Part shown: in pieces, positions 1,331 through 16,167 of the stretch
How the letters are laid out: each line of letters begins with the position of its first letter
How positions within the stretch are numbered: the stretch's first letter is position 1
Source: Kiritimatiellia bacterium
GTDB taxonomy: Bacteria > Verrucomicrobiota > Kiritimatiellia > RFP12 > JBMNHG01
Length of the DNA: 17,268 nucleotides
Direction: 5' to 3'
Assembly (NCBI GenBank): GCA_045627705.1
Contig: JAZQOE010000063.1
Coordinates: forward strand, 1 to 17,268
Made by a program: the position numbers and the translations under genes
The notes under the pieces: generated by a model
What the model was told of the DNA's origin: nothing
Databases searched by the model: none
The model's input: the letters and a program-made list of their open reading frames with translations, nothing else

Positions 1331-1363
1331 ATTGAAAAGCGCTTTGGATGAAATCCGTGCGTA

Positions 1364-1391: not shown

Positions 1392-1440
1392 TAGGAAAAT
1401 GGGGACATTCGTTGCGCCATGATTCCTGTCACCGAAAAAT

Positions 1441-1470
1441 TCGGAGAAATCAAAACGGGGACATACCCCG
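1441..1470 (-). terminator. Candidate rho-independent terminator downstream of the Vps4-like operon: CGGGG-uaugu-CCCCG followed by UUUUGAUUUCUCC on the minus strand. A T-rich tract also follows on the plus strand, so it could act in both directions.
   Basis: Hairpin and U-run read directly from the sequence. The stem is only 5 bp, so confidence is modest. A second, weaker hairpin GGGGG-ucuau-CCCCC lies at 1586-1603. Confidence 0.3.
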
Positions 1471-1801
1471 ATTTTCATTTGTCCGATCACAATTTCGGCA
1501 GTACGACCGCATCGAAACACTGAACTCTCCTTGCCGTTCCGATTCCCGCCAGTTCCTCGCAGCGGATTCCATAAACACCCCTTTTGGGGGTCTATCCCCC
1601 TTTCGCCGACATTCAAGCCGCTTGTCCTCGGTTACTTTGCCGCTGGCGGCAGGCGCTATTTCTGTCTTGTTTCGGTTGTTCTGCCCTGGGCGTCGCGCCT
1701 CGTTTCGCGTTCGCCGGCCGAAACCGAGAATGCAATCATTACCATTGGGAGAATTAGGCAGATTGTCTTCATCGTCCAACGTCAACTGAAGGTGAATGTA
1801 C

Positions 1802-2944
1802 TCAACCAAACCGTTTCTTGTTGAAGTCTTCGAACTGCGCCAGCATGGTTGGGGTTATGGAGGAAGGAATGACCGTGCGGGCTTCTTCAAGGTCGGATGG
1901 GACGACGAGCGGATCGCCGCCGGTATCTATGCTGCGGCGGAAGGCTATTTGACAGGCCTTTTTCGCAAGGCCGACGATATCGCTGCCGGAGTACATGGCA
2001 AGCGCCTCCGCCCATGCGTCGAGATCGATCGACTTGTCGATAGCGGCCTTCTTGAAAGCGCGGGCGAGCATTCCGCGGCGGGCGGGGGCGTCCGGGACCC
2101 CGATAAAAATCTTTTCGTCGAAGCGTCCGGTACGGAACACGGCCTCGTCGATCTCCCACGGCTTGTTGGTCGCGCCGAGGATAAGCAGGATATTCGGGCT
2201 GTCCTTGAAACCGCCGACATCGGCGAGGAACTGTGTGACGAGGCGGTTATCGACAGCCGAGGAACTTTCCGTGCGACGCGGGAGAAGGCCATCGATTTCA
2301 TCGAGGAACAGCACGGCGACAGGCTTGTCCTGCGCGGCGTGGATGAGCCGCGACAGTTTCTGCTCGCTTTCGCCGTGCCACTTCGAGCGGATCTGCGCAC
2401 CGGAAGCATAGAAGAACGGAGCGGAAATCTCGTGGGCGATCGCCTTTCCAAACATCGTCTTGCCATTGCCGGGCGGACCATAGAGCAGGACACCTCCGCC
2501 AGGCTTGATGCCGAGTGCCATGGCCTTTTCCGGCTCGCGCATCGGGTTAATCACCATATCGAAAATCGCGGCCTTGGCGTTCTCCATGCCATCGATGTCG
2601 TCGAAAGAAACCCCGGTGTCGGCGGTGACCTGGAACTCGGAATCATCATCGTTTTCCTGCGGTTGGCCGGACGTGGCGACGGCATCGCGTGATTCGCGCG
2701 ACAACGATGCGAGTGCGGACGGCGGCGACAACTTCGCAGTCTTCAGTTTCTCCGCGATTTCAAGCCAGCCTTCCGCGGTCGATACATAGCTGGCGGCGAC
2801 GGGACCAGTCGATTGTCGCGCAAGGGCGAAGCAAAACTCGGCGGCCTTGGCCGCGTGGAAGATCGCCTTTGCATTGTCGCCAGCCTTGATTGCGGACTCG
2901 CAGGCTGATTCGTGTTCGGACTTCTTGTCGGAGAGGAAGCTCAT
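1802..2944 (-). CDS. Vps4-like AAA+ ATPase (meiotic-clade AAA) with an N-terminal MIT-like three-helix domain and a Vps4-type C-terminal helix.
   Basis: 380 aa with an ATG start. Walker A GPPGNGKT, Walker B VLFLDEID, and second-region-of-homology/arginine-finger motifs LGATNKPWEIDEAVFRTGRFDEKIFIGVPD. SKWHGESEQKLSRLIHAAQ closely parallels the Vps4/katanin/spastin SKWLGESEKLV region. The N-terminal ~75 aa (AIKAGDNAKAIFHAAKAAEFCFALARQ...AEGWLEIAEKLK) resemble the Vps4 MIT domain (…EYLDRAEKLK). The C-terminal …MLAQFEDFNKKRFG parallels the Vps4 C-terminal helix …LKKFTEDFGQEG. GC3 is strongly biased. Confidence 0.88.
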   Translation of the reverse strand: MSFLSDKKSEHESACESAIKAGDNAKAIFHAAKAAEFCFALARQSTGPVAASYVSTAEGWLEIAEKLKTAKLSPPSALASLSRESRDAVATSGQPQENDDDSEFQVTADTGVSFDDIDGMENAKAAIFDMVINPMREPEKAMALGIKPGGGVLLYGPPGNGKTMFGKAIAHEISAPFFYASGAQIRSKWHGESEQKLSRLIHAAQDKPVAVLFLDEIDGLLPRRTESSSAVDNRLVTQFLADVGGFKDSPNILLILGATNKPWEIDEAVFRTGRFDEKIFIGVPDAPARRGMLARAFKKAAIDKSIDLDAWAEALAMYSGSDIVGLAKKACQIAFRRSIDTGGDPLVVPSDLEEARTVIPSSITPTMLAQFEDFNKKRFG

Positions 2945-2959
2945 GTCTTGCGGAGGCTA

Positions 2960-3478: not shown

Positions 3479-3521
3479 GTTGATTTCCCCTTTTCGACGC
3501 ATGCGATGCGATGGCGGTCGA

Positions 3522-4169
3522 TCATTTGCCGTCGAGGATGCTCTTCACGCGATCCTGGCCGGCGGACACGCGGGCGTCGATTTCCTTGCCGGCGGCGACG
3601 GGTGTCGCGGCGCCACCGATTTCGGCGGCGACCTCCTGTTCGAGCTGGGCGCCGAGATCCTCCATGCTGGGTATGTAATCCTTGGCGGTACCCGTTGCGC
3701 CCTCCATCTCCTTGTTGTACATCTTTTCCCAGAAACGGTCGCCATCGACCTGTTCGCCGAGGAGGTCCTGGGCGGTATCGAAGACATCCATGACCTTTTC
3801 GGGGTCGATGTTCACGACCTTGTTCAAGGCTCCAAGGGCGTCGGCGAACTGGGCGTCGGAACCCGCGACCTGCATCTTCGTAATGTACTGTTCGAAGATC
3901 CAGCGCTTCTGCTCGAGCTTCACCACGAGCGCCTGCGAGGCGCGGTAGCTGACGAGGGCGCGCTGGGCAGCGGCCTTCTCGCCGTTTTTCAGCGCCTCGC
4001 GGGCGGCGTCCCAACTCTTTTTCGCCTCTTTTTCGAGTTCCATCTGGCGATCCTTCACCGAATCCACGGCCTTTTCGGCGTCGCGGAAGGCATGGCGGCG
4101 CTCGCGGCGCTCCTCGCGTCTGCGTTCGGATGGTGACTTGAAGACGTTGAGAATGTCGGCGATATTCAT
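3522..4169 (-). CDS. ESCRT-III / Snf7-family protein (Snf7 and CHMP4-like helical hairpin with an acidic C-terminal tail).
   Basis: 215 aa with an ATG start and a GGAGTG Shine-Dalgarno. The core KNGEKAAAQRALVSYRASQALVVKLEQKRWIFEQYITKMQVAGSDAQFADALGALNKVVNIDPEKVMDVFDTAQDLLGEQ aligns by eye with the Snf7 and CHMP4 region TKGNKvmAknALkkKK...LE...eqqL...E.A....E...AM..GAKAMK..H..mDIDKVDEtMDEIrEQ. The C-terminal DYIPSMEDLGAQLEQEVAAE is acidic and amphipathic, like an ESCRT-III MIM region. The composition is coiled-coil-rich and is not PspA-like. Confidence 0.75.
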   Translation of the reverse strand: MNIADILNVFKSPSERRREERRERRHAFRDAEKAVDSVKDRQMELEKEAKKSWDAAREALKNGEKAAAQRALVSYRASQALVVKLEQKRWIFEQYITKMQVAGSDAQFADALGALNKVVNIDPEKVMDVFDTAQDLLGEQVDGDRFWEKMYNKEMEGATGTAKDYIPSMEDLGAQLEQEVAAEIGGAATPVAAGKEIDARVSAGQDRVKSILDGK

Positions 4170-4224
4170 GGCTTCACTCCAAGATTAAGACGGTGGCGGG
4201 CGGCGATGCGACCGGCTTCAACCA

Positions 4225-5388
4225 TCAAGGATTGACTGGCACGGCCGCCTTCGGCTGCATGTTTTCATCGCCGGACACGAGGCTCATCAGCCCCGATGCG
4301 TCGATGCCGAGCGAATCGACCATTGTGCGGTTGGACTCCAGGAGATTGCGGAGGCGTTCGACGGAAAGCGGGTGCGTGCGCGTCGGGACGTCATCTACGC
4401 CGGCTGTTTCCTTCATCGCGAAGAAGAGTTCCCAGAACAGCCTGCCGACAAAGGTAGCCGTGGCCGCAGAATCATTTTCCCCGATCGTGGCGTTGATCAT
4501 GGTCGAAGCAAACGAATCCGCCTCGCGCTCCTGGTTGCGCGAGATGTCGAGGTTGTCGTTGATGGTGGAATCGCTGGAATCAAGGTGGCCGAGGACATGG
4601 TGGCCGATCTCATGCGAGAGGGTGCCGGCGACCATTCCCCCGGAAATAGCCTCCATGCCAGACATGAAACTTGGATCTCCGAGATCGGCGGCGCTGATGC
4701 CGCTGTCAATCAAAATGGAAATCGCGTCTTCCTTCGGCATCCTGCCAATCGAACCGATCAGTCCGACGAGCCGTTCGAGGCATTTGGAATCCTCGCCAAG
4801 CGCCATCCTGCGGGAATCCGCCGCTGATGCGCACCCGACAAGCCTGGCGAAATTCCATGCACCGGCGTTGAATTTGATAATCCGGCAGATTTCGCCGCTG
4901 GAATCATCCTTGCGTTTCGTTGCGAACGCATTGATTTCATCGTTATCGTTGTATTCAAGGCGTATGGAGTCGGCGATCGGCTTATAGATCTGATTCTTGG
5001 AAACGGCGTCGTTTGCGATCAGGCTTCCGAATATTTCGGCGAGTCTCTCGTGCGGGGCGTCGAAAATGGGGCCAAAGACCCCGTACTGTCCATTGTCGCT
5101 TGCGCTTCCGGCATTATTCTGCGCCTCCGTTCCGGTGGTCTCGCCTGACGGCCGCGGGCAACGGCCGAAAAGAGGCATTAGCCAGCATCTGACGCCAAAG
5201 AATGAAAGGAACACCAGTACAAGCGCTATCAGGGAGAACCACAGCCAGAATGTGCCGTTGCCGACCTTGCGCTGGCGGGAATATGGCATGGGAGTATCCA
5301 CTGGCGAGGCGGTGTGCGTCGTGCCAAGCCGACGTTCATATTCCTGCTGGAAGATTTCCTTGCGGGTCTTTTTCGGTTGTTCTGCCAT
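4225..5388 (-). CDS. Membrane-anchored HEXXH zinc metallopeptidase. The catalytic motif resembles the ImmA/IrrE (M78, DUF955) or M48 families.
   Basis: 387 aa with an ATG start and a GGAGTGAA Shine-Dalgarno. An N-terminal TM helix (WLWFSLIALVLVFLSFFGV) is followed by HEIGHHVLGH and, ~25 aa on, SRNQEREADSFA (Glu third ligand plus EA(D/N)xFA). This spacing fits ImmA/IrrE-type metalloproteases, although M48 has a similar SR..E.eADaFA motif. Confidence 0.7.
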   Translation of the reverse strand: MAEQPKKTRKEIFQQEYERRLGTTHTASPVDTPMPYSRQRKVGNGTFWLWFSLIALVLVFLSFFGVRCWLMPLFGRCPRPSGETTGTEAQNNAGSASDNGQYGVFGPIFDAPHERLAEIFGSLIANDAVSKNQIYKPIADSIRLEYNDNDEINAFATKRKDDSSGEICRIIKFNAGAWNFARLVGCASAADSRRMALGEDSKCLERLVGLIGSIGRMPKEDAISILIDSGISAADLGDPSFMSGMEAISGGMVAGTLSHEIGHHVLGHLDSSDSTINDNLDISRNQEREADSFASTMINATIGENDSAATATFVGRLFWELFFAMKETAGVDDVPTRTHPLSVERLRNLLESNRTMVDSLGIDASGLMSLVSGDENMQPKAAVPVNP

Positions 5389-5461
5389 GATTCACTCCAA
5401 TTGTCAGCTGAATGCGCTTTGTCCGCGGCGCGCGGAGTTTTCCACGCGCCGCGGATCGCGG

Positions 5462-6061
5462 TTAGAACACAAAACCGAGAATCGGCGACTGGCGGCCGCT
5501 GCCGGACTTGTTCCAGAGGCCGATCTGGAGCCCCATGCCGCATTCCGCGATGTTGAGGATGCCTATCTGGAGGCCGTTCAGCTCCTTTGTCCTGTTCACA
5601 AACCCGCCGATCGCGATGCCGCTGAAACTCTCCGACTTGTTGCCGAGGACATTGACGGCCAGACCACCGGCGTCGCGGTCGCATTCGCCGAACAGCCCGA
5701 GGTCGATGCCGAACATATCGACTGGCTTCGCGCCGATGTTCGGGAAGCTGAGGTTCACGCGGACGCCATAGACCGAGCAGTTGTCGAGCGGCGGGACGGA
5801 GAGCGGTCCGACCGTCAGCGCAAACGGCGATGTCGTCTCCTCCAGCACGACTGGATCGGCTACGACAGCGGTGGCGACAGGCGCGGAAAGATTGATTGGC
5901 GAAACAGGCACCACTGGCAATGGCGCCGGGGCGACAACTACCGATGGCGCAGCAGCACCGCCATTATCGACCGAACCGCGACCGAACGGGGCGTACTCCG
6001 CATCGGCAAAAGCCATGCAGGCCGCGACAGAGGCCATGGCCGCAAACAAGATATTCTTCAT
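5462..6061 (-). CDS. Secreted protein of unknown function, paralog 1. Signal peptide, conserved GLQIG-repeat C-terminal domain ending in Phe, possible small outer-membrane beta-barrel.
   Basis: The track ORF 5462..6328 over-extends. I use the internal ATG at 6059-6061, giving MKNILFAAMASVAACMAFA (signal peptide). The C-terminus ...ELNGLQIGILNIAECGMGLQIGLWNKSGSGRQSPILGFVF is shared with the next gene. Confidence 0.7.
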   Translation of the reverse strand: MKNILFAAMASVAACMAFADAEYAPFGRGSVDNGGAAAPSVVVAPAPLPVVPVSPINLSAPVATAVVADPVVLEETTSPFALTVGPLSVPPLDNCSVYGVRVNLSFPNIGAKPVDMFGIDLGLFGECDRDAGGLAVNVLGNKSESFSGIAIGGFVNRTKELNGLQIGILNIAECGMGLQIGLWNKSGSGRQSPILGFVF

Positions 6062-6102
6062 GACAAGTTCCTTCAAATGCGCCGGCATGCGGCGTAACCG
6101 CA

Positions 6103-6669
6103 TTAGAACACGAAACCGAGGATCGGCGACTGGCGACCGCTGCCGGACTTGTTCCAGAGGCCGATCTGGAGGCCCGAACCGCAATCGGCGATGTTGATGA
6201 GGCCGACCTGGAGGCCGTGGAGTTCGTGGGTCCGATTGAGGAATACCGAAATCTGGATGCCTTCGAACACGCCGGGGCAGTCGTTGTCGAGGACATTGAC
6301 CCAGAGTCCGCCGCCATCGCGGCGGCACTCGCCGCTGAGGCCGACATCGACCGCGTACATGTCTATCGGCACATCGGTCACCTGCGGGATACCAAGATTC
6401 ACTCCGACGCCGTATAGGTTCAAGTCGTGGAGGAAAGGAATGCTGACAGGCCCGATTGTCAGGGCGAACGGGGTGAATCCCTCGCCGAAGTAGTCAGAAC
6501 GCGGGACAACCGGGGGATTCTCCGGATAAACAGTTTCATAGCCGGCACCAACCTTGTGCGGGGATACCAAGCTGGCGTCTCCAGGCCTGACTACCGAATA
6601 AGGGGCGGCTTGGCAGGCCGCGGCCAGCACGAAAAATAGCGAGACAGATGCGAACAACGACTTTTTCAT
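6103..6669 (-). CDS. Secreted protein of unknown function, paralog 2. Signal peptide, same conserved C-terminal domain.
   Basis: 188 aa with an ATG start. MKKSLFASVSLFFVLAAACQA is a signal peptide. The body is conserved with paralog 1 (SPFALT.GP.S.P......YGV.VNL.......D.....D.GL.GEC.RD.GGL.VNVL.N...GI.I..F.NRT.EL.GLQ.G.LNIA.CG.GLQIGLWNKSGSGRQSPILGFVF). Confidence 0.75.
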   Translation of the reverse strand: MKKSLFASVSLFFVLAAACQAAPYSVVRPGDASLVSPHKVGAGYETVYPENPPVVPRSDYFGEGFTPFALTIGPVSIPFLHDLNLYGVGVNLGIPQVTDVPIDMYAVDVGLSGECRRDGGGLWVNVLDNDCPGVFEGIQISVFLNRTHELHGLQVGLINIADCGSGLQIGLWNKSGSGRQSPILGFVF

Positions 6670-6736
6670 GGTCTATTCCTTTGCTTCGTCGGTTTTGCCG
6701 CATGACCGTCCAAGCGGCCATGCGGCATGGGATTGA

Positions 6737-7618
6737 TTATAACGGGCGGTGGACGTTAAGCTCTTCGATCGTGTAGATGCGGTTCATTATGCCGTCGGGG
6801 AAGAAACTGCGGTCGTAGAGCACATCGACCACGATCGTGCGCGAGGCATTGCTTGTCGAAACGACATGGCAGTCATAGACGCCATCGAGACGTGTGAGCA
6901 CGTCGCAGAAAAGCGACGGGTAGTCGGAATGGCGGTCAAGAAACCAGGCGTTGGCGATAGTGATGCGGCTGATTTCCATCTGTCCGGCCACCTTGAGGCA
7001 GCTTTCGGCCGCCCACTTCGAAACCGAATCGGCCATCTTGGAGGAGACATCGCGGATAGCCTCTTCGCGGGAACGGGCCTGCTCGCCCTGCGCATCAAAC
7101 AGACGATGCGCCACGACTCCGGCCTCCTTGCGGCCGTTAACCGCGTTGACCTCTGGACTGCGGGTCACGGAGAAATCAATCTCGCCCCTGTAAACAAGGC
7201 GCGAACCGCGGGAATTGCGCTCGGCGCACTTGACCTTGCCATAGACGAGCAATTCGGCGGGGACATCGTAAACGACGCTGAAACCCTGGCCCGACAGCAC
7301 ACCCTCGACATCCGCGCGAAGGTAGTCGCAGAGCGTGGCGGCATCGTCGTCGACCGGTTCGAGGCTGAGGTACGTGCGGAGCGGAACGACCTTGGCTGTC
7401 GCCGTGGCCTGGACTTGCGTGCCATTGGTCTCATCTACCGGCTGGGCGCTGACGGCGACGTATTGTCCGCCCTGGCCAACATATTGGGTGCCGCCAGTGA
7501 CGTGCTGGTCGCCTCCAGCGTAGTTGACGTACGGATAGGCGGTGCGGCAGCCAGACAGGGCCATGGCGGCGGCAACGGCCGCGAATGTCATTGCCCAAAT
7601 AGAAACCTTGCTGTTCAT
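6737..7618 (-). CDS. Lipoprotein of unknown function.
   Basis: 293 aa. MNSKVSIWAMTFAAVAAAMALSGC has a lipobox (LSGC), followed by a Gly/Gln/Tyr-rich linker and then a globular domain. GC3 is coding-like. My by-eye coordinate for the start differs from the track by 1 nt, so I use the track. Confidence 0.75.
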   Translation of the reverse strand: MNSKVSIWAMTFAAVAAAMALSGCRTAYPYVNYAGGDQHVTGGTQYVGQGGQYVAVSAQPVDETNGTQVQATATAKVVPLRTYLSLEPVDDDAATLCDYLRADVEGVLSGQGFSVVYDVPAELLVYGKVKCAERNSRGSRLVYRGEIDFSVTRSPEVNAVNGRKEAGVVAHRLFDAQGEQARSREEAIRDVSSKMADSVSKWAAESCLKVAGQMEISRITIANAWFLDRHSDYPSLFCDVLTRLDGVYDCHVVSTSNASRTIVVDVLYDRSFFPDGIMNRIYTIEELNVHRPL

Positions 7619-7643
7619 TTCAGTATTCCTTTCACTTGTGTTT

Positions 7644-8861
7644 TCAGCGGACTCGGATCATCGTGTGCGTGACGAACCATACGATTGCCAGGACGACGAC
7701 CAAGAGGATGAAGTTACGCGGTGTGATGACGGAGCGGAACCACGTGGCGAGCAGTTCAAGCCAGTCTGGGCTATAGACACCGCGGCCCTGGGCGGCGGCA
7801 ACGACCTTGAAGCTGTTGCCGATGTCGCGGAACTTGACGTCTGTCACGACCTCGTACCTGGTGTTGTAGCCCGGGGTGGTCGTAAGGGTCAAGCGGTCGA
7901 GGTTCTTGCCCGTCGGGTCAAGGACGATCGTTCCGTTGTCATCGGAGACGGTGACGCTCCCGTTCAAGACAGCCATCCGGCCATCGCGGACATTGGGACC
8001 GAGCTTGCGGGTCAACTGATCAAGCACCGAGTCGCTGAACTGGATGTTTGTCCCGGCGCGCTGGCGGAGGAAGCGGGCCATCATGCGGTCGCTTGCGCCA
8101 CCATTCGGAAGGTCGTACACCACGATGCTATTCTGGCGGCCCTGCCGCGTGACCTCGTTGAGGAACACCTGCGACATAGCGCGCCCAAGAGGCCCGTCGA
8201 AGGGAATCAGGAACGAGCCATAGCCATCGACATCGGCCGGGATGTTCCTGACGAGTTCCTCGGCCGCCAATTCGACGGCGCGCCGCCATTGGGCAGGGAG
8301 TTGCTCGTTGTCTGGACCCATGTCGTCGTATGTGCCTTCGACCGTGCCGCTCCACAGCAGTTCGGATGTCTCGACCTTGTAGAGCCGGAGATTGACGCGG
8401 ACGATCGTCCTGAAGGAATTTTCCTGGGCGCCGACAACCTGGCCGAGCAGGAGTGCGTCGGCGAGTTTCAACTTGCCGATGACGGGGAGGACATTCTTGG
8501 CGTAATCGGTGAAATCAGATGCCTGGTCGAAGACCTTGTCGATATCCTTCCACTCCTCGCGGTCGCTGTGAAGTACGAATCGGAAGTCGGCGGGGACTTG
8601 TCCAAGCGCACCCTCGAAGATGAGGGAGATGTCGGAATCGGATGCGAACATGCCCTGGCTATCGGATGTCATCAACCTGGTGAAAGCGATGTTTTTCGTG
8701 CCCGCGACGCGCGGGTCGAGAGACATCTGCATGATTGCCTGAAACGCCGCGTCTTCGACGGCGTATTGCGCCTCGAGCTGCCCGGCGACAACCGGAGCGG
8801 CCGCGAACAGGGCGGCTGCAACGCAGCCTTTGAACCAACCAATGGTCTTTGTGAAGTTCAT
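7644..8861 (-). CDS. Secreted, C-terminally membrane-anchored protein of unknown function.
   Basis: The track ORF starts 13 codons earlier. I use the ATG at 8859-8861, which has an AGGAAAGG Shine-Dalgarno. MNFTKTIGWFKGCVAAALFAAAPVVAG is a signal peptide. A ~360 aa soluble region ends in a hydrophobic anchor NFILLVVVLAIVWFVTHTMIRVR. Confidence 0.7.
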   Translation of the reverse strand: MNFTKTIGWFKGCVAAALFAAAPVVAGQLEAQYAVEDAAFQAIMQMSLDPRVAGTKNIAFTRLMTSDSQGMFASDSDISLIFEGALGQVPADFRFVLHSDREEWKDIDKVFDQASDFTDYAKNVLPVIGKLKLADALLLGQVVGAQENSFRTIVRVNLRLYKVETSELLWSGTVEGTYDDMGPDNEQLPAQWRRAVELAAEELVRNIPADVDGYGSFLIPFDGPLGRAMSQVFLNEVTRQGRQNSIVVYDLPNGGASDRMMARFLRQRAGTNIQFSDSVLDQLTRKLGPNVRDGRMAVLNGSVTVSDDNGTIVLDPTGKNLDRLTLTTTPGYNTRYEVVTDVKFRDIGNSFKVVAAAQGRGVYSPDWLELLATWFRSVITPRNFILLVVVLAIVWFVTHTMIRVR

Positions 8862-8909
8862 GGTGTTAACCTTTCCTATTTGACAGAAACAGACAAGCAT
8901 TCAAGAAAT

Positions 8910-9857
8910 TCAGCCCAGTTCCGGGCTTTCGGTTATGCCGTCGCGGTCGCGTGACGGCCTTTCCGGCATTGTTTCATCGGCCGATGCGACGGGAGTGGCG
9001 GCCGGGTCGGCGGCGGGGACATCCCACGCGCCATCGGAATCGAACTCCGAGAGCGCGGCGTCGAAGGAACCGTCGTCGCGATCCCTCCTGCGGCCGGCCT
9101 TGTCGAGGTCGCCAAGAGCATCCTGGAGATCCTCGGCATCATCGGACTTCTCCTCGATGGTATCGGCAAGACGGTCCACCATGTCCTCGTCGAGCGGGCC
9201 GCGAAGCCCATGGGCGAGCACCTCCATGAAACGACCCTTCACGCTGGCGATCGACTTCTCGTTCTCGCAAAGCAGCGCGTATTCCCGTTCCAGGCCCTTG
9301 TACTGGGCCATGAGCGCCTCGAGTTCCATCTTGAGGATGCGGCGGCGCACTGGCGAAGCGGCTTCGTACGCCTTCTTCTTCTCGACAATCCCGCGATAGG
9401 CGGCGTCGAGTTCGGCGGAGGCGGCGTCGCGGCGGCGGCGGTTGCCGTCGAGGGCGCCGTTGAGCGAAACCAGCATCGCTTCCGGCGACCGATCCACGTG
9501 GATCTTCGACCAAAGGCTGCGCAGTCCGCCGCCGACCTTGCCGGCGAACGAGACGGCCTCCGCCATCGCCTTGGCGGCGAGTTCCTTCGGGGCGGACTTG
9601 ACCAGCTCGGCCTCCCGCAGGTCGCGCTCGCCCTCCGCCCTTTCGTTTTCCTTGTCCATCTTCTCCCCTTCCTTTCGGTCCGCCGCCTTCGGCGCCTTCC
9701 CGTCTTCCTTCCAGCCATGCGCGGGGCAACGGCCATTCCCGCCATGCGCGTGGAGCTGGCAGAACACGGCCTCGCAACCCGGTTCCGCGCAATGGCCGCC
9801 AATCGCCCAGCGATTGGGAAGCACCTGTTGGCAGATACAACATCTCGGTTCAGCCAT
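8910..9857 (-). CDS. Zinc-finger protein whose central and C-terminal region is ESCRT-III/Snf7-like (second ESCRT-III paralog).
   Basis: The track start is TTG. I use the ATG at 9855-9857, which has a GGGGTG Shine-Dalgarno. The N-terminus MAEPRCCICQQVLPNRWAIGGHCAEPGCEAVFCQLHAHGGNGRCPAHGW carries 8 Cys/His ligands (treble-clef, B-box or FYVE-like spacing). A Lys/Glu-rich linker follows, then helices RRRILKMELEALMAQYKGLEREYALL...GPLDEDMVDRLADTIEEKSDDAEDLQDAL that parallel Snf7 alpha2-alpha5 (…mDIDKVDEtMDEIrEQvElgDEIsDAI). The tail DDGSFDAALSEFDSDGAWDVP is acidic. Confidence 0.6.
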   Translation of the reverse strand: MAEPRCCICQQVLPNRWAIGGHCAEPGCEAVFCQLHAHGGNGRCPAHGWKEDGKAPKAADRKEGEKMDKENERAEGERDLREAELVKSAPKELAAKAMAEAVSFAGKVGGGLRSLWSKIHVDRSPEAMLVSLNGALDGNRRRRDAASAELDAAYRGIVEKKKAYEAASPVRRRILKMELEALMAQYKGLEREYALLCENEKSIASVKGRFMEVLAHGLRGPLDEDMVDRLADTIEEKSDDAEDLQDALGDLDKAGRRRDRDDGSFDAALSEFDSDGAWDVPAADPAATPVASADETMPERPSRDRDGITESPELG

Positions 9858-9935
9858 TGCGCACCCCACTGTAAACAACGTTTTTGTTATTTACATAATG
9901 ATGGTTTATCATAATTGTTGTTTGTCTGTCCATAT
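9858..9935 (-). promoter_or_regulatory. AT-rich island (~30% GC) between the FHA paralog and the zinc-finger ESCRT-III gene. Candidate internal promoter or regulatory spacer.
   Basis: A sharp compositional drop in an otherwise ~65% GC locus. It is the only intergenic gap in the cluster longer than 75 nt. No convincing hexamers were identified. Confidence 0.25.
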
Positions 9936-11276
9936 TTATTTTTGTTTATTTTTCTTATATTTCTTATACACGGGATTGTATTCCGTCACGCGAATGAGTC
10001 CCGCAGCACTTTGGAATTCCATCCCTGGTTCAAGAACGCCCGAACCTACGTTGCCGGTACTCCAGAAGAAGCCGCCGGCATCCGACCGCGCCACGATGAA
10101 ACCAGCGAGCGCAGGGATGACGACGCCGAAATCGAAGCATGACCAAAGGGCAACGAAGACCTCCGGATAGTCGTTTTTCTGCTGGATTACCACGCATGGC
10201 CTGATGCCGGTGCCGCACCAATCGCGCGATGGCACCTGGCAGACCGGGCACAGGCCGGCCGCCATCGGACTGTAGTATGCCACGGAAAGGGAAAAACTGC
10301 TTTCGCAACCCGTCGCGGGCGTGATTACGCCGGAATTGTGCGCCGCGTCGAGTATGCAGGCCTCCCCGGAAATGCGCGTGCCGTTCCAGAAGGTGCCGCA
10401 TGATGATGCATCCTTCAGGATCACCGAGGATCCCGCGCCGCAGATTATGCAGTGGTGGCGGCTGATCCTGCTTGATGCCGCATGCTCCTCGGCCGTCGTC
10501 TGGCATTTCTCCTGGAGAACGATCGTGTTGTCGCGGTGGCGCCCAATGGTGATTTCCTCCTTCGGGATAAGATGAATCAGAGTGCCGGCGATTTCAAGCG
10601 TGAGGTCTCCGCTGTAGGCGGGCGCCGTCTGCGCCGCCGCACATTGCGCCTGGGGCATGCTCGTCAGCTCCAGCGGCACGAGACGATAGGCGCGCGCTTC
10701 GCCATCGACCACCCTGCGCAGTTCCTCGAAGGAACTTTCGCCGGAATGCCGCAGCGAAAGGTCCTGTATGGCGTCGGCGGCATCCTGGGAAAGCCTGACG
10801 TCGGCAGCATGGCCGCATTGGATGTCGTTTCGGATGTTGAATACTATGTTTTCGGCGCACTTGCCGACCTCTTCTGAACGCGCGACGAAAAACGAGACAT
10901 TTCCGTCGAAGCTGTACGCTACGCCGTTCAGCACGAATGAAAGGATGATGTCCAGGGCATGGACGCCGGCGATGCCCGCGTCGATCTGCACGTTGTACTC
11001 GCGCATCGCCGCGAGAATCTGCCAGTTCTTGCTGTATTGCCTTCCGCTGCCCTGGAAACAGAGCGACAATGTCACATCCGAAAGGAATCCCTGTGCCTGG
11101 ATTGCCGGGCCGATGCGGAAGCGGAGGATGCCACTGCCGCGTTCGATGAGAAAGCAAAGGCTGTCGATCTCAAGCCTGACGGGGCAGTCGCCCGCCTGTG
11201 CCGCGAGCGGACTCCCGCATCGGTCGCAGAACTCGCCGGTGGCGGCGTGGCTTCCACATTTTGGACAAGTGGCCAT
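9936..11276 (-). CDS. Zinc-ribbon / FHA-domain protein, paralog B. N-terminal zinc ribbon, central FHA domain, conserved Cys-containing C-terminal domain of unknown function, Lys-rich tail.
   Basis: 446 aa with an ATG start. The N-terminus MATCPKCGSHAATGEFCDRCGSP is a zinc ribbon. FHA-like ITIGRHRDNTIVLQ...SRISRHHCII...GSSVILKDASSCGTFWNGTRISGE fits GR..N.IVL...SR.HA.I...D.S.NGTfvNG. The C-terminus WCGTGIRPCVVIQQKNDYPEVFVALWSCFDFG...GGFFWS...LEPGMEF...VTEY is shared with paralog A. The terminal VYKKYKKNKQK is encoded in the AT-rich island. Confidence 0.8.
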   Translation of the reverse strand: MATCPKCGSHAATGEFCDRCGSPLAAQAGDCPVRLEIDSLCFLIERGSGILRFRIGPAIQAQGFLSDVTLSLCFQGSGRQYSKNWQILAAMREYNVQIDAGIAGVHALDIILSFVLNGVAYSFDGNVSFFVARSEEVGKCAENIVFNIRNDIQCGHAADVRLSQDAADAIQDLSLRHSGESSFEELRRVVDGEARAYRLVPLELTSMPQAQCAAAQTAPAYSGDLTLEIAGTLIHLIPKEEITIGRHRDNTIVLQEKCQTTAEEHAASSRISRHHCIICGAGSSVILKDASSCGTFWNGTRISGEACILDAAHNSGVITPATGCESSFSLSVAYYSPMAAGLCPVCQVPSRDWCGTGIRPCVVIQQKNDYPEVFVALWSCFDFGVVIPALAGFIVARSDAGGFFWSTGNVGSGVLEPGMEFQSAAGLIRVTEYNPVYKKYKKNKQK

Positions 11277-11303
11277 GGCTTTAGTGGCTTAACTCCGCGG
11301 GAA

Positions 11304-12809
11304 TCACACGCCGGACTGGCGGTAGGGCGTTACCGCGACCGGTCCGTACGCCGAGTTGAGGGACATTCCGGGAACCAGGCGCCCGACATGGTGCTGCGGC
11401 GAACTCCATGCGAAACCGCCATCGGCACGCTTGATCCAGATTCCTTCCAGTCCGGGATCCGCATTGCCGAGGTTGAAGCATGACCAGAGCGCGACGAAGG
11501 TCTCGCGCGGGCCGTCGTTCGAGACGATGCGCAAACAGGGGCGACATCCGCCGCCGCACCATTCGGGTTTCGGGCCGACATCGCACGAACGGCAGAAATC
11601 GCAGGGCATGAAGGCGCGGATCCCGAAGGAAAACACGTCGTCGCCCGGCATTCCGCCAAGGAACACATCGGCTCCATCGTCGCCGATGAAATCGGTGATG
11701 TCCGCGGCGCCTTCGACATGGAGGACGCCCCAGGCCGCCGCGCCGCGGGCGCAGTCGAAGTATGTCCCGCGCGTCGATGCGATGCGCCCGCCGCGGTCGT
11801 CGACGGAGCCGTCGTGGAGCATCACGCGGCCCCCGTCGCAGTCGAAGTAGCAGTGCATGCGGCTCACCTTCCTCGTGTCGAAGCGCTCGCGGGCGTTGCC
11901 GAGCGTCCCCGGACGTACCACGATGGTATTCGAGCGACTGCGGCCGAGAAGAATCCGATTGCGCGCCACGAGGTGTATCATTCGCCCCTCCACGTTGAGG
12001 GTGATTGCGTCGGATGAATCATGCGGCGCGGCCGCATCGCCGAGTTCCTGCGCCCTGAAAGCCATGGCCTGGGGATCGCCTGCGGCCCCGGCCATGCGGA
12101 CGCTGGAAGAAGCCGCGCCAACGGCTCCACCAGCCGCGTAATTCGCGGTGAAGGCAGCGGGCGACACTCCGATAGACGGGCCGACACCCGGACGCGGCGA
12201 CCTCATTGGCATGGCCACGACTGGCTTGACCGGCACGCCCGGGACAAACGCGGGATGCGGGACGACCGCGACCGCCGGGGGAACAACCGAAACCGCCGGC
12301 ACCGGCGCGATAGCCAGCGAGGGATGCGACACGACCACCTGCGGCGCAGCGGGATTGACAACCGTCACTCCTGGATGGACTGGCGCCGCGGGCGGAACCG
12401 CGGAAACCACGGCCGCAGGCGGAGGCGGCGCGGCTACGACCGGTGCAGACCCGGCGAATGGCGGCGGAACAGGGCCGGGAATGGCGGCTGCGGCGCCAGG
12501 GATCACGGCCGCCGGAACCACGCCGGGGGCGACCGGAGCGACCACCGCCTCTGGAAGGGGGCTGGGCATCACGGTGGCGGCATGGCGCAGATAGCTATTT
12601 GACGGCGCAACCTGTGGCACGGCCGGCATCTCCGGAACAGCCGGAAGTCCAACCGGCGAGACAGCCGCCGCGACTTCGCCAGACATGGCATCCACCGGAG
12701 GTGTCGCATCCGATGCCGCGGAAGGCGCGGGCATCGCCAGCGGCGCACCGCAGCGCTCGCAGAAAGCGCCTGGCGATACATTGAATCCGCATTTGGGGCA
12801 CTTGACCAT
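11304..12809 (-). CDS. Zinc-ribbon / FHA-domain protein, paralog A. N-terminal zinc ribbon, ~180 aa Pro/Ala/Val-rich disordered linker, FHA domain, same conserved C-terminal domain.
   Basis: 501 aa with an ATG start and a GGGAAG Shine-Dalgarno. MVKCPKCGFNVSPGAFCERCGAP is a zinc ribbon. FHA-like ILLGRSRSNTIVVRP...VSRMHCYFDCDGGRVMLHDGS...STRGTYFD. C-terminus WCGGGCRPCLRIVSNDGPRETFVALWSCFNLG...GGFAWS...LVPGMSL...VTPY (~45% identity to paralog B over ~85 aa). Confidence 0.8.
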   Translation of the reverse strand: MVKCPKCGFNVSPGAFCERCGAPLAMPAPSAASDATPPVDAMSGEVAAAVSPVGLPAVPEMPAVPQVAPSNSYLRHAATVMPSPLPEAVVAPVAPGVVPAAVIPGAAAAIPGPVPPPFAGSAPVVAAPPPPAAVVSAVPPAAPVHPGVTVVNPAAPQVVVSHPSLAIAPVPAVSVVPPAVAVVPHPAFVPGVPVKPVVAMPMRSPRPGVGPSIGVSPAAFTANYAAGGAVGAASSSVRMAGAAGDPQAMAFRAQELGDAAAPHDSSDAITLNVEGRMIHLVARNRILLGRSRSNTIVVRPGTLGNARERFDTRKVSRMHCYFDCDGGRVMLHDGSVDDRGGRIASTRGTYFDCARGAAAWGVLHVEGAADITDFIGDDGADVFLGGMPGDDVFSFGIRAFMPCDFCRSCDVGPKPEWCGGGCRPCLRIVSNDGPRETFVALWSCFNLGNADPGLEGIWIKRADGGFAWSSPQHHVGRLVPGMSLNSAYGPVAVTPYRQSGV

Positions 12810-12827
12810 GACGGGCTTCCCTGCCTG

Positions 12828-14762
12828 CTACTTGATATTGTTGAACTGCTGCGGCGGAGGAAGCGGCTGAATAGCCTTCTTCGCCGCCTCGTTGATCGGG
12901 GAGAGAAGCGTTCCCATGCGGCTGTCCTCTCGGTCGTAGGAATCGTCGTGGAGATCCTCCACCTTCTTTACGAAGCGTTCCGCGTCCTCGCGCGTCTTGT
13001 CCAGCTCGACCTGCTTGAGCCTTTCGAGCGCAACCGCGGCGGCGGGACTCTGGGCCGCGAGAGCCGCGAGTATCTGCTCCGGCGTGCGCGAGTTGTCGGA
13101 GGCGCGGAGCGCGGTGAGCGCGCCAGCGGCGATCGGGTCGGCGTTGTTCGCGGCAGCCTCGGCGAGAATGTGCTCGACATCGAGGGCGGCGTCGCGGTCG
13201 AGCTTGGCCTTCTGGAGCAGGCGAGCGCGAAGGGCGTCGTCATCGACATCCATCAGGCGTTCCTCGAGGGACATGCCGTGGCGGCGGTCGGCCTCGGCCT
13301 GCCTGTAGTCGAGGTTCACCTGGTTCTTTTCGCGGCGGACGCCGATCCACTCCTTCGCCTGGCGGACCTGCTCGTCCGCCGACATCCCGGAAATCTGCGT
13401 GGCATTCGTGGAGTTCTTGAGCGCCTCGCCGCGGTTGAAGTCCCCGATCTTGCCGGCGTTGGCGATGCTGTTATCGACCGCGCGGTCGCCGAGCCCGAAC
13501 TGGTGTGCCTGGTCCTCGTCTTCCACGGTGTAGGCGTGGTGGCGGAGTTCGTCGGCATGGCCGAGGCGCTCTATGTCGAGCATGCGCTGGTAAACTTCGG
13601 CCTCGTGCGAGCGCTCGCGCTTGAGGACTTCCCACTCGTGGTTGATTTCCTCGACCGTCAAGCCATATTCGTTGTTGAGGTCGAGGATGTAGCGCCGCAT
13701 GTCGTCGGCGTCCTTGTACTGCGACATGTTGCCGTGATCGACCGTCTTGCGAAGCGCGTCCCGGTATTCCTCGTAGCGGCGCTGCTGGTCGAGCGTGCGG
13801 CCATAGCCATACTGGGTCTCGTTGTCCTCAACCGAATCGCCGGCATGGGCCGTGACGTTCTGCTCGATGGTGGCGGCGAGCTTCTCGTATTCGTCGCCGG
13901 TGAATTCGGCGGAGGAAACGCGCGCGACTTCGAGTCCGCTGGCGGCCAGGTCATCCGCAACAAGGCGCGTCATCGACTCCTGCAGGCGGATGCGGCGCTG
14001 CGGGTCGCGGACAAGGTCGTCGAGCGTGGTCGCGGTACACATCGAATCGACGGCGAAGCGCATGACGGATTCGAGCCGTGCCGAAATCTCCGCCAGCGAC
14101 GTGCTGCGGTCAGACTTCATCAGGTTGGCCACCAGCGCCCGCGCGGAATCCTTGTCGCCGCGGAAACGGAGTATCACCTCGCCGTAGAATTCGATCGGAT
14201 AGCGCTCGGCTGTCGAAAGCGCCTCGATGTGCACTGGAAACGCCACTTCGGCGGCATCGACCAGCACCACTGAACGCGGCGGCGGATTGCCGAACCAGTT
14301 GATCTTGTGCGCCAGGCTGTCCGGGGCATGGCGGCCGCTTTCGAGGATGCCGCGCACCTCTCCGCCATCCATGATGATCGCGAGCGTTCCTTCCTGGATC
14401 TGGAGGCCGTCCTGGAGGATGCGCTTCACGTCGCCGATCTCGAAGCGCTGGGCGAACATCCCTGGCTCCTTGCGCCATACGCCCCCGGCCATCGCCGAAC
14501 GGTCGTCAGGGTAGAGCGGGGTGTTGCAGTGCGGGCAGAAGCGCGAGTCGTTGCCAATCCACTTGCCGCACGACGGACAGCGCCACCAGCCGCCAGGCGC
14601 AGGGCTGCCGCAGCGGTTGCAGAAGCGGGCGTTCTTCCTCACCCGGTTGCCGCAGCGCGGCCACTTGGGATCAAGCTTGGCCGCCTCGAGGGCATCGCCC
14701 GAAAGCGCCCTCTGCGTGTTTGGATCGATCAAGGCGTCGCAACGGTCTGTAAAGATTCCCAT
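12828..14762 (-). CDS. Double-zinc-ribbon SPFH (band-7 / flotillin-like) protein with a long C-terminal coiled coil.
   Basis: 644 aa with an ATG start and an AAAGGGA Shine-Dalgarno. Two CxxC...CxxC ribbons: RCGNRVRKNARFCNRCGSP and RCPSCGKWIGNDSRFCPHCNTP. The SPFH-like core is IQEGTLAIIMDGGEVRGILESGRH...SVVLVDAAEVAFPVHIEALSTAERYPIEFYGEVILRF...ARALVANLMKSDRSTSLAEISARLESVMRFAVDSMCTATTLDDLV...RIRLQESMTRLVADDLAASGLEVARVSS. A ~330 aa Glu/Arg/Ala/Leu-rich coiled coil follows. Confidence 0.8.
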   Translation of the reverse strand: MGIFTDRCDALIDPNTQRALSGDALEAAKLDPKWPRCGNRVRKNARFCNRCGSPAPGGWWRCPSCGKWIGNDSRFCPHCNTPLYPDDRSAMAGGVWRKEPGMFAQRFEIGDVKRILQDGLQIQEGTLAIIMDGGEVRGILESGRHAPDSLAHKINWFGNPPPRSVVLVDAAEVAFPVHIEALSTAERYPIEFYGEVILRFRGDKDSARALVANLMKSDRSTSLAEISARLESVMRFAVDSMCTATTLDDLVRDPQRRIRLQESMTRLVADDLAASGLEVARVSSAEFTGDEYEKLAATIEQNVTAHAGDSVEDNETQYGYGRTLDQQRRYEEYRDALRKTVDHGNMSQYKDADDMRRYILDLNNEYGLTVEEINHEWEVLKRERSHEAEVYQRMLDIERLGHADELRHHAYTVEDEDQAHQFGLGDRAVDNSIANAGKIGDFNRGEALKNSTNATQISGMSADEQVRQAKEWIGVRREKNQVNLDYRQAEADRRHGMSLEERLMDVDDDALRARLLQKAKLDRDAALDVEHILAEAAANNADPIAAGALTALRASDNSRTPEQILAALAAQSPAAAVALERLKQVELDKTREDAERFVKKVEDLHDDSYDREDSRMGTLLSPINEAAKKAIQPLPPPQQFNNIK

Positions 14763-14808
14763 CTCAAGTCCCTTTCATCCGCCACCTATGGCTAGCGGCA
14801 AACAGATT

Positions 14809-15168
14809 TCACTTCCTAGTCTCATTCTTGCCGGCATTTCCCGCGCAATCCTTGCAGAGGCGCAGGCCAAGACGCGTCCAGCAGTCATTGCAGATCGGCG
14901 CCGCGCAGCCATCGCCCTGGCAGTGGTGCTTCAGCGACACGCGGCTGCGATAGACGTTGCCGCAGATAGAGCATTCGCCACCGCCGGAATTCTCGCGCTT
15001 CTTGTCCTCGAGATACACATCGAGGTCGGCGCGTGAAACCCTGTACAACTTTCCAAGGCGAAAAGCCGGAAGTTCGCCACTCCGCGCCAGTTTGTAAACG
15101 AGCTGATAGGTCACGCCGAGATAATCGGCGACCTCTTCAAGGCTCATATACTCTTTATCGGTTGGCAT
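14809..15168 (-). CDS. Excisionase/MerR-superfamily HTH DNA-binding protein with a C-terminal zinc-ribbon domain. Likely regulator and first gene of the cluster.
   Basis: 119 aa with an ATG start and an AAGGA Shine-Dalgarno. SLEEVADYLGVTYQLVYKLARSGELPAFRLGKLYRVSRADLDVYLE matches the excisionase-family HTH (HTH_17-like). C-terminus CSICGNVYRSRVSLKHHCQGDGCAAPICNDCWTRLGLRLCKDC. Confidence 0.8.
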   Translation of the reverse strand: MPTDKEYMSLEEVADYLGVTYQLVYKLARSGELPAFRLGKLYRVSRADLDVYLEDKKRENSGGGECSICGNVYRSRVSLKHHCQGDGCAAPICNDCWTRLGLRLCKDCAGNAGKNETRK

Positions 15169-15399
15169 TATTGAATCCTTTTCGTTTCGTTGATGACATC
15201 AAGTTATCATTATTGGTTTTTGATGTCAATGCGAAATTTTGAAATATTTTGTTTATGTTTGTTTATATTTTATGTTTACAAAATCGGGGCCAAGACAACC
15301 CTGAAACCGACAGTTGCAAGGCAAAGACATCATACAGTTTTTCCAGTGCAGAACAAAGTCTTTGATTTTCGAGTTCAATAAGCTGTAAAATCATTTGCA
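15169..15399. promoter_or_regulatory. AT-rich divergent promoter region carrying operator-like palindromes: TTGATGACATCAA (15190-15202) and TTGATGTCAA (15220-15229). Also a TGTTTA/TGTTTAT direct-repeat tract (15247-15280).
   Basis: Read directly from the sequence. A 13-bp perfect palindrome with a 1-nt centre and a related half-site repeat lie 22-60 nt upstream of the HTH gene start. The region separates the minus-strand cluster from the plus-strand secreted-protein genes. Confidence 0.4.
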
Positions 15400-16164
15400 G
15401 TGAGATTGTACACAATATTTCGCTCCGCCCTTGTGGCGGCACTTGCGGCGTCGGCGAACGCCGCGATCCAGTTCGACGCATCGTTTGCGCCGTCGCTGGA
15501 GACGAACGGAGATGATGTCGTCTCGTGGGTCTCAACTTCCGGCGAAGCCGCGATCCATCCATGTCACGGCGCGACGAACGGCTGGACCTTGGCAAGGATC
15601 GCCGAGAATGGCGTGGACTTTTCCGGCACGCCCGCCGGGGTCGCTTCCCCGCTCTGCTTCCAGGACTCCGCGACGGGGATGGTCGGACGCATGTTTGCCG
15701 TCGCCGACTGCATCGCGCCGTCGGCGCTCTCGACCATTGTGGACGCGCCCGTGCCGGTGCGCGTCTCCGCGCCGCTTTTCGACGCCGACGGGTTCACGGT
15801 CGAGGCGACAAACGCGCTTGGCGTCGCACATGTCGAGCTGGACGGCGTGGAAGGCGGGGCGGTCGATGCCGGGCGGCATGTCGTCGAAGTTGCCTTCGAC
15901 GAACCCTGCGAGATGCGCGGGATTTTCATTGGCGGATGCCCCGCGACGCCCGCGTGGCGGCGCTCGTGGAACGGGACGATCCGCGAGGTCGTGCTTCTGC
16001 CGCCGGGAGCGACGGGCGAGGAGCTGGCGACCGTGCGGGCGTATCTCGCGAAGAAGTGGGATCTGGCGAGGCGTCCGTCGGGGTTCGCAAACGAGCTATT
16101 CATCGCGAAGCGCCTCGGACTCCGCGTGGGGAGCCTCTACGGCTCGGTACTGATGGTGAGGTAG
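15400..16164 (+). CDS. Secreted protein of unknown function.
   Basis: No in-frame ATG. The start is GTG (15400) or TTG (15406). (M)RLYTIFRSALVAALAASANA-AIQ is a signal peptide with an AXA cleavage site. GC3 is strongly biased. The stop lies 3 nt before the next ATG. Confidence 0.6.
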   Translation: MRLYTIFRSALVAALAASANAAIQFDASFAPSLETNGDDVVSWVSTSGEAAIHPCHGATNGWTLARIAENGVDFSGTPAGVASPLCFQDSATGMVGRMFAVADCIAPSALSTIVDAPVPVRVSAPLFDADGFTVEATNALGVAHVELDGVEGGAVDAGRHVVEVAFDEPCEMRGIFIGGCPATPAWRRSWNGTIREVVLLPPGATGEELATVRAYLAKKWDLARRPSGFANELFIAKRLGLRVGSLYGSVLMVR

Positions 16165-16167
16165 CGA

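Follow-up and report, generated by a model that had tools for sequence, protein, structure and literature searches.

The DNA considered here, 17,268 nucleotides of a Kiritimatiellia bacterium (GenBank assembly GCA_045627705.1, contig JAZQOE010000063.1, forward-strand positions 1 to 17,268; hereafter the window), harbors two adjacent minus-strand genes, paralogs A and B, whose products share a zinc ribbon, a forkhead-associated (FHA) domain and a C-terminal domain (C-domain) that a first-pass annotation, made from the sequence alone, did not recognize. Both genes lie in an operon-like block that runs on the minus strand from 15168 down to 1802 and that also encodes a Snf7-family protein, an AAA+ ATPase and a zinc-ribbon SPFH protein. 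We lean, with moderate confidence, towards A and B being a duplicated phospho-dependent adaptor or switch of a system of the Planctomycetes-Verrucomicrobia-Chlamydiae (PVC) bacteria, in which a Snf7-type protein, an AAA+ ATPase and a zinc-ribbon SPFH scaffold would be the further components. The two genes are composed as follows.

11304..12809, minus: paralog A gene, 501 aa, from its open reading frame (ORF) and translation; zinc ribbon, Pro/Ala/Val-rich linker, FHA domain and C-domain
12735..12809, minus: A, 4-Cys zinc ribbon, aa 1-25, CPKCG...FCERCG, from sequence
12060..12734, minus: A, low-complexity Pro/Ala/Val-rich spacer, aa 26-250, in frame from ribbon to FHA domain, from composition
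11712..12011, minus: A, FHA core, aa ~267-366, with GR289 and S316-x-x-H319, from Pfam and the family hidden Markov model (HMM)
11310..11615, minus: A, Cys-rich linker and C-terminal beta domain, aa 399-500; C-domain HMM E=1.7e-30, representative-search profile E=1.1e-50
9936..11276, minus: paralog B gene, 446 aa, from ORF and translation; ribbon, beta-sandwich, helical bundle, FHA domain, C-domain and Lys-rich tail
11202..11276, minus: B, 4-Cys zinc ribbon, aa 1-25, from sequence; short beta hairpins in the AlphaFold2 (AF2) model
10677..11189, minus: B, middle module, aa 30-200, an Ig-like beta-sandwich (33-132) and then three helices (134-191)
10272..10607, minus: B, FHA domain, aa ~224-335, with GR245 and S272-x-x-H275, from Pfam and the family HMM
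9972..10271, minus: B, Cys linker (C343, C346, C354, C361) and seven-strand beta domain, aa 336-435, including W378-S-C380
9939..9971, minus: B, Lys-rich tail, aa 436-446, PVYKKYKKNKQK, from sequence; predicted local distance difference test (pLDDT) score of 45 in the AF2 model

Domains of the two paralogs

The two ORFs and their translations hold the motifs quoted in the first-pass annotation, and the common architecture of the neighbors is corroborated by BLASTP, which aligns A and B at 35% identity over 252 aa (E=4e-36) spanning the FHA domain and the C-domain, the latter (the last ~110 residues) being 42% identical, and which returns a separate match between the ribbons (CPKCG...FC.RCG; 28 aa, 57% identity, E=6e-8). 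In the ORF list, the gap between A and B is 27 nt and that between A and its upstream neighbor 18 nt. An N-terminal zinc ribbon is likewise likely, as the 4-Cys pattern CxxC...CxxC is present in A, in B and in 79/113 family members; the Pfam scores of the window ribbons stay below cutoff (Zn_ribbon_3 E=0.013 and DZR E=0.024 for A, DZR_2 E=0.079 for B), and 18/96 relatives have a Pfam zinc-ribbon match at E<=0.01.

The FHA assignment, proposed initially from a motif, is borne out by profile detection in both paralogs: Pfam FHA (PF00498) scores 42.3 bits in B (E=1e-10) and 22.0 bits in A (E=2.3e-4), each above the gathering score of 20.7. The family FHA HMM finds the domain in A at E=1.9e-26, PF00498 is matched at E<=0.01 in 79/96 family members, and the NCBIfam FhaB model reaches 18.9 bits against a cutoff of 125. 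The phosphothreonine-binding motifs are kept, as GR289 and S316RMH in A and as GR245 and S272RHH in B, congruent with their conservation across the family (G 95/96, R 76/96, S 95/96 and H 88/96), and the Asn of the usual FHA NG loop is variable (N298 in 44/95 members). Phosphothreonine binding by both proteins is thus predicted from the retained GR and SxxH.

The AF2 model of B, built on a 96-sequence alignment, has a mean pLDDT of 86.8 (33 in a single-sequence run) and places the ribbon at 1-25, the sandwich at 33-132, the helices at 134-191 and the FHA domain at ~197-335, followed by a Cys-rich linker and a beta unit at 361-432. The FHA domain is modeled as an eleven-strand beta-sandwich that can be superposed onto solved FHA domains. 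HMMs of the middle module, the FHA domain and the C-domain all match B, and the middle-module HMM gives no match to A. Among the related loci with enough flank, A is the sole family gene devoid of the middle module; outside the loci examined, a few other full-length members of the census described below also lack it. Judged by sequence, B represents the canonical architecture of the family, and A appears to be a derived copy from which the beta-sandwich and helical module is missing.

The Pro/Ala/Val-rich spacer of A described at first pass is confirmed by the composition of aa 26-250, namely 24% Ala, 22% Pro and 19% Val (65% combined), and Tandem Repeats Finder (TRF) found no DNA-level tandem repeat in it. 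In a neighbor-joining tree of the FHA and C-domain region, A and B are sisters (75/100 bootstrap) and both sit on long branches, suggesting that the duplication is old and lineage-specific; the ~35% identity of the pair similarly speaks for an old duplication and for long retention of A. With one copy lacking the output module, the tandem pair represents a natural experiment.

As for the Lys-rich tail of B, it exists as described, but its proposed function as a membrane- or nucleic-acid-binding element was rejected. The tail positions are occupied in at most 37/96 family members and hence not conserved, the tail is modeled as disordered (pLDDT 45), and the AT-richness of the underlying DNA is accounted for by Lys codons and the intergenic spacer. 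In this spacer TRF gives just one short T-rich repeat, and promoter and terminator scans over the region returned counts near the shuffled expectation. The tail is best regarded as an idiosyncrasy of B rather than a family trait.

The C-terminal domain and its family

Pfam, NCBIfam and PADLOC scans of whole A and B returned nothing over the C-terminal ~100 aa, a Pfam scan of 44 isolated C-domains at E<=10 gave no recurrent match, and a 44-sequence C-domain profile searched against all PDB sequences reached a best E of 0.96, so that the domain is as unrecognized by these searches as it was at first pass. Its derivation from a degenerate second FHA domain, or kinship with the middle module or another window protein, was also considered and rejected at hhalign probabilities below 1%.

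Searching for the domain elsewhere, as had been advised, yielded ~158 clusters together with their operon partners and kinases. A word-indexed homolog search with B found only B itself and P0002, a relative with 32% identity. When 1.84 billion representatives were searched with an index-free profile, 158 proteins were recovered at E<=1e-3, 43 of them at E<=1e-10; nearly all are 400-600 aa long and carry the C-domain at the extreme C-terminus. We then took a census of the architecture of 151 proteins, comprising 150 of the 158 profile matches and P0002. In 111/151 a middle module precedes the FHA domain and C-domain, with the 4-Cys ribbon in addition in 78 of those, and no full-length protein in the census has a C-domain without a directly preceding FHA domain.

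In the model of B the C-domain comprises strands 361-366, 372-376, 393-397, 403-407, 411-415, 420-423 and 426-432, at pLDDT 84-95. The motif that had been called invariant is indeed shared between A and B; family-wide it does not hold, and other positions are conserved, which across 96 members are C346, C354, R366, D368, E372, W378, C380, L383, F403, L415, P417 and G418 (B numbering). Three of these, R366 (90/96), D368 (83/96) and E372 (91/96), all lie on the first beta hairpin. The near-invariant R366 is absent from both A and B, and D368 is also absent from B.

The linker Cys and the Cys of the W-x-C motif vary together. The latter is present in 46/51 members with three linker Cys, in 22/32 with four and in 3/13 with fewer than three, that is 68/83 with at least three against 3/13 with fewer (Fisher p=4.9e-5, 96 members). 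Where the linker has four Cys, His, Tyr, Phe or Arg often stands in place of the W-x-C Cys, and members with zero linker Cys mostly lack it too. This pattern points to a predicted structural zinc site of four Cys that pins the linker to the beta unit, rather than to a catalytic thiol, as the Cys co-vary as a four-ligand set. Of the two options raised initially for the Cys and the W-S-C stretch, metal binding is thereby favored, in the form of structural zinc, and a catalytic role of the Cys was rejected on the covariation pattern. As far as established, the C-domain would accordingly constitute an undescribed, zinc-stapled beta domain, with a family of ~158 clusters, that is always fused to one type of FHA domain.

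The operon and related loci

The remaining genes of the operon-like block are listed below.

14809..15168, minus: HTH_17 protein, excisionase/MAD1-like, with C-terminal Cys-rich finger; first operon gene; Pfam HTH_17 E=1.3e-15
12828..14762, minus: double zinc-ribbon SPFH/Band-7 protein with long coiled-coil tail, directly upstream of A; Zn_Ribbon_1 1.4e-10, DZR 3.2e-8, Band_7 3.6e-8
8910..9878, minus: p322, with Cys-rich finger, coiled coil and acidic tail, from sequence
4225..8900, minus: envelope and accessory block from p418 to the peptidase, comprising the next five entries
7644-8900, minus: p418, membrane-anchored, with a signal or transmembrane (TM) segment and a C-terminal TM segment, from TM scan
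6737-7618, minus: p293, lipoprotein
6103-6669, minus: p188, secreted LA_2272-repeat protein
5462-6061, minus: p199, secreted LA_2272-repeat protein, 54% identical to p188
4225-5388, minus: TM-anchored HExxH M48/Lit-like peptidase, from Pfam, NCBIfam and PADLOC
3522..4169, minus: Snf7-family (ESCRT-III-type) protein, 215 aa, Pfam Snf7 PF03357
2960-3502, minus: p180, 3-TM protein, from TM scan
1802..2944, minus: classic-clade AAA+ ATPase, last operon gene; Pfam AAA 1.4e-34 and AAA_lid_3

The assignment of the 215-aa protein to Snf7 is supported at the family level by its relatives. All 27 of its orthologs match Pfam Snf7 (best E 6.9e-8) and none of the 27 matches PspA_IM30; yeast Snf7 and Heimdallarchaeal ESCRT-IIIB account for five of six PDB profile matches, the top four among them, at marginal E of 0.056-0.19. 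The relatives amount to 842 clusters, some of them named 'Snf7 family protein' at NCBI and many with a precomputed PF03357 match. For the AAA+ ATPase, the top PDB matches are p97/Cdc48, and the NCBIfam scores are 196.5 bits for CDC48, 177.7 for PAN and 166.5 for CdvC (cutoff 650); neither MIT nor Vps4_C is matched in Pfam at E<=1. By eye, its N-terminal ~100 aa are all-helical and TPR- or MIT-like, with no Pfam MIT match, and could represent an MIT-like region.

Contigs with relatives of B carry the same cassette, and in an all-against-all BLAST ten gene families of the window recur in related loci in shuffled order. A genome scan anchored on the Snf7-family protein gave 26 loci, which, where named, all belong to Kiritimatiellia, Lentisphaerae, Victivallales or Verrucomicrobiota. 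In the loci with HTH_17, SPFH, FHA protein, Snf7-family and AAA genes (L001-L033, all of Kiritimatiellia, Lentisphaerae or Verrucomicrobiota and thus of PVC bacteria), the component identities are 30-80%, and strong similarity of the Snf7-family protein (54-80% identical) and the AAA protein (52-80%) spans three classes or phyla. When mapped, the genes run from HTH_17 through SPFH, FHA protein, a variable block, p322 and Snf7-family protein to AAA. Congruent with this order, the HTH_17 gene is kept at the head of related loci, the SPFH protein has orthologs in them, and p322 has orthologs in more than 15 loci, its usual place being directly upstream of the Snf7-family gene. The HMMs of the middle module, FHA domain and C-domain detect one such gene per locus with enough flank and two in the window; by this measure, the tandem FHA pair seems to occur at no other locus.

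The link to Ser/Thr phosphorylation, initially drawn from the FHA domains, gains weight from the relatives: BLAST places Ser/Thr kinases, many of them fused to FGE-sulfatase domains, in ~18/22 informative loci, usually directly after the AAA gene, and a kinase also flanks the caspase-fused variant described next. The contig ends 1.8 kb past the AAA gene, so that the kinase of this organism must be encoded elsewhere. In three loci, L017 (OW818680.1, a 6.1 Mb chromosome), L012 and L018, three to five Ser/Thr kinase genes stand in a row by the cassette, many with FGE-sulfatase domains, which suggests a diversified sensor bank feeding one system.

In rare members (loci L034-L037) the ribbon and middle module are replaced by a Peptidase_C14 caspase (P0048 and P0130) or by a TIR domain (P0135). 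The caspase variant is located directly upstream of a kinase-FGE-sulfatase gene and amid further caspase genes, but its surroundings contain neither SPFH nor Snf7 nor AAA genes; nor are the other genes of the system found near the TIR variant. Given these swaps and the adjoining kinase-FGE-sulfatase gene, the FHA-C-domain unit behaves, as far as sequence and gene order can tell, as a portable phospho-switch paired with the kinase-FGE-sulfatase type and coupled to varied outputs.

Turning to the other operon genes, the HTH_17 protein matches PADLOC mad1 (2.3e-8) and an NCBIfam model, and the peptidase matches PADLOC peptidase_U41, Lit and CapP (1.3e-7 to 1.2e-6) and the NCBIfam 'phage exclusion protein Lit'. 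A small Cys-rich ribbon or finger is present in each of five cytoplasmic components, namely the HTH protein, the SPFH protein, A, B and p322, and BLAST aligns the C-terminal finger of the HTH protein with the one at the N-terminus of a p322 ortholog (35%, 40 aa, E=7e-4); these fingers may form a shared recruitment or assembly module. The LA_2272-repeat (VC2662-like) proteins p188 and p199, of 188 and ~199 aa, represent a second tandem duplication in the operon. The ORF of p199 as listed, 5462-6328, overlaps the upstream gene, and its true start is probably the Met at 6061.

Directly downstream of the last operon gene lies a complete tmRNA gene (ssrA; 976-1330, minus, tag peptide ANDMALAA, Rfam 174 bits). 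A genomic island integrated at the tmRNA gene is not supported: whereas such an island would be expected at the 3' end of ssrA, the operon flanks its 5' side, and neither an integrase nor a direct repeat was seen. A small ORF at 543-845 (minus, ~100 aa) shows, by eye only, a GIY-YIG-like motif, FHYVYFL...YVGYT...RL..HN.G. At the other end, 15382-17268 on the plus strand encodes two probable secreted proteins divergent from the operon, the second of which bears repeats of a DxDGDG-type (thrombospondin-type-3-like) calcium-binding motif and is cut off by the end of the contig. An AT-rich dip at 15001-15500 (GC 0.45) represents the intergenic and promoter region shared by the operon and the divergent genes.

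Proposed role and comparison with known systems

How might the adaptor operate? A Ser/Thr kinase-FGE-sulfatase sensor, encoded beside the operon in most relatives, would phosphorylate a threonine on itself or on a component of the system, and the FHA domain would read this phosphothreonine through its canonical GR and SxxH. The ribbon, Ig-like sandwich and helical bundle of B would dock onto the membrane SPFH/Snf7/AAA machinery, a role that may be likened to that of CdvA or ESCRT-I/II acting for ESCRT-III; in rare relatives the output would instead be the caspase or TIR effector that takes the place of the N-terminal module. The C-domain is envisaged as a non-enzymatic seven-strand beta module, stapled to the FHA domain by the zinc site of three linker Cys and the W-x-C Cys, and most likely provides a protein-protein docking or oligomerization surface, possibly for the kinase. 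As A keeps the ribbon, FHA domain and C-domain, with a flexible linker replacing the output module, it would modulate B, through competition for the phospho-mark or by forming a pair with it. Who phosphorylates whom, which partner the C-domain has and how A and B divide their roles are the steps of this scheme that we infer.

Several points weigh against the adaptor reading. The match of the window protein itself to Pfam Snf7 (E=8.7e-5) stays, at 22.7 bits, below the gathering score of 27.3, and the ATPase does not come out as specifically Vps4-like by sequence, with CDC48 and PAN outscoring CdvC and no MIT or Vps4_C match. A structure search with the full-length model of B returned lists filled by FHA and Ig-like matches. 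The polar R366, D368 and E372, near-invariant in the family, may belong to a ligand-binding or catalytic site, and A and B, being devoid of R366, may behave unlike typical members. No kinase was found in the 17 kb window, or contig, by BLAST with the kinases of two related loci, as the first-pass annotation had already remarked. Finally, the interactions, phosphorylation and zinc binding of the scheme are predicted from sequence and model.

Among the alternatives, the one that fares best leaves the mechanism of A and B unchanged and assigns the operon to immunity or programmed cell death, as a conflict system in which the FHA-C-domain unit licenses effectors once the kinase senses an invader; the effectors would be a caspase, a TIR protein or the Lit/M48-like peptidase, possibly with membrane disruption by the Snf7, AAA and SPFH proteins. 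We regard this as possible, albeit on the whole unlikely. It accommodates the Peptidase_C14 (P0048, P0130) and TIR (P0135) swaps, the caspase genes in or beside related loci, the PADLOC (Lit, peptidase_U41 and CapP) and NCBIfam (Lit) matches of the window peptidase, the resemblance of the HTH_17 protein to MAD1 of MADS and the variable gene content between the SPFH and Snf7-family genes, and bacterial conflict systems repeatedly use FGE-sulfatase domains as sensors or effectors (PMC7159879). Nonetheless, PADLOC-DB 2.0 gives no match for the FHA proteins, the SPFH protein, p322, p418 or p293 (a scan that excluded the Snf7-family and AAA proteins), the conservation of the core (Snf7-family 54-80%, AAA 52-80%) is unusual for fast-evolving defense genes, and the window shows no integrase or mobile-element hallmark, its neighbors being tmRNA and secreted proteins.

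We consider it improbable that the C-domain works as an enzyme, or as a sensor of small molecules or metal, in which the Cys, W-S-C and R-x-D-x-x-x-E form an active or ligand site. The near-invariance of R366, D368 and E372 on the first beta hairpin, the conservation of C346, C354 and C380 and the absence so far of a match to any known fold would fit such a role; the Cys covariation is on the other hand typical of structural zinc rather than a nucleophile, no His/Cys dyad is conserved in the ~75 aa of beta strands, and in A and B the domain is kept under constraint despite the loss of R366 from both, and of D368 from B. That A is merely a decaying duplicate with little or no function, its spacer a remnant of a disrupted middle module, can be largely set aside, for although it is the lone member in the examined loci without this module, has an FHA score just over the Pfam cutoff and extra insertions in that domain, and is seen in one contig only, its 501-codon frame is intact, it keeps the ribbon, the FHA GR and SxxH and the entire C-domain (C-domain HMM E=1.7e-30), its ~35% identity to B indicates an old copy of long survival, and a few other full-length members are without the middle module too.

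The adaptor reading extends to a bolder proposal, which we put forward tentatively and consider rather doubtful as it stands: PVC bacteria may carry a true ESCRT-like machine, in which an AAA+ disassemblase and an SPFH scaffold accompany a Snf7-type polymer and a kinase-controlled FHA adaptor, analogous to CdvA or ESCRT-I/II, does the targeting; it would stem either from an ancient transfer tied to euryarchaeal FHA/adaptin/SPFH ESCRT systems or from independent invention, and the same switch would also be wired to caspase and TIR death effectors. If true, such a machine would contradict the view that ESCRT-III systems coupled to Vps4-type ATPases are absent from bacteria, and would link ESCRT-like membrane remodeling to phospho-signaled immunity or cell death. 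A system working as proposed would offer a bacterial model of the targeting and recycling of ESCRT-III polymers, and would bear on the origin of ESCRT accessory modules.

Regarding the literature, a passage of Makarova et al. (2024, PMC10936438) states that homologs of ESCRT components are not identifiable in bacteria, and a 2025 review (PMC7619361) that a Vps4-like ATPase appears to be absent from them. A survey of PspA/Snf7 (Ravi et al. 2024, PMC11237479) reports some bacterial Snf7-AAA+ links and never mentions FHA, and the conflict-system surveys of Kaur et al. contain FHA and FGE-sulfatase in other contexts only, with no ESCRT, Snf7 or Vps4. No published description of the operon or the C-domain was found in the literature searched, the coverage of which is limited and hence no proof of absence.

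Of previously described systems, PspA/Vipp1 operons (PMC11237479; B. subtilis YdjI) similarly link an ESCRT-III-superfamily protein with SPFH/Band-7 in bacteria; here, however, the polymer protein is of the Snf7 type (PF03357) and not PspA_IM30, and its genetic partners include a classic AAA+ ATPase as well as an FHA adaptor and a kinase. Stand-alone FHA adaptors that work with Ser/Thr kinases, such as the mycobacterial FhaA, FhaB/FipA and GarA and the zinc-ribbon-FHA protein ArnA of Sulfolobus, differ from A and B in being devoid of the C-domain and of the Ig-like and helical module, and they are not encoded with Snf7, AAA and SPFH genes.

Two archaeal systems come closer. In Halo_FHA (arCOG13166, PMC10936438), an FHA protein with a CdvA-like C-terminus occurs with ESCRT-III, Vps4, Ser/Thr kinases and phosphatases. 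Compared with its published description alone, the present system equally combines an FHA protein, an ESCRT-III-family protein, a classic AAA+ ATPase and Ser/Thr kinases in one locus, and the proposed logic, phosphorylation-dependent targeting of ESCRT-III, would be the same. It is however found in PVC bacteria and not in haloarchaea, its C-domain is modeled by AF2 as all-beta and predicted to be zinc-stapled in contrast to the helical CdvA-like region of the paper, and a zinc ribbon, an Ig-like sandwich and a helical bundle precede the FHA domain. Meth_adaptin (PMC10936438), in turn, unites a zinc-ribbon and adaptin-appendage protein with a zinc-ribbon/coiled-coil SPFH protein, ESCRT-III and Vps4. 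The Ig-like similarity of the present module is generic, with transglutaminase, complement MG and Sec63 scoring equally or better, and no TBP-like subdomain, GOLD or ProX was seen here, whereas the archaeal description includes neither FHA nor C-domain.

FHA adaptors as such are well known; what appears new, as far as established, is the C-domain, the portable FHA-C-domain switch and the Snf7/AAA+/SPFH operon in Kiritimatiellia, Lentisphaerae and Verrucomicrobiota. This operon seems to combine features of Halo_FHA and Meth_adaptin, yet it is bacterial, its C-domain is modeled as all-beta and its ATPase does not come out as Vps4 by sequence.

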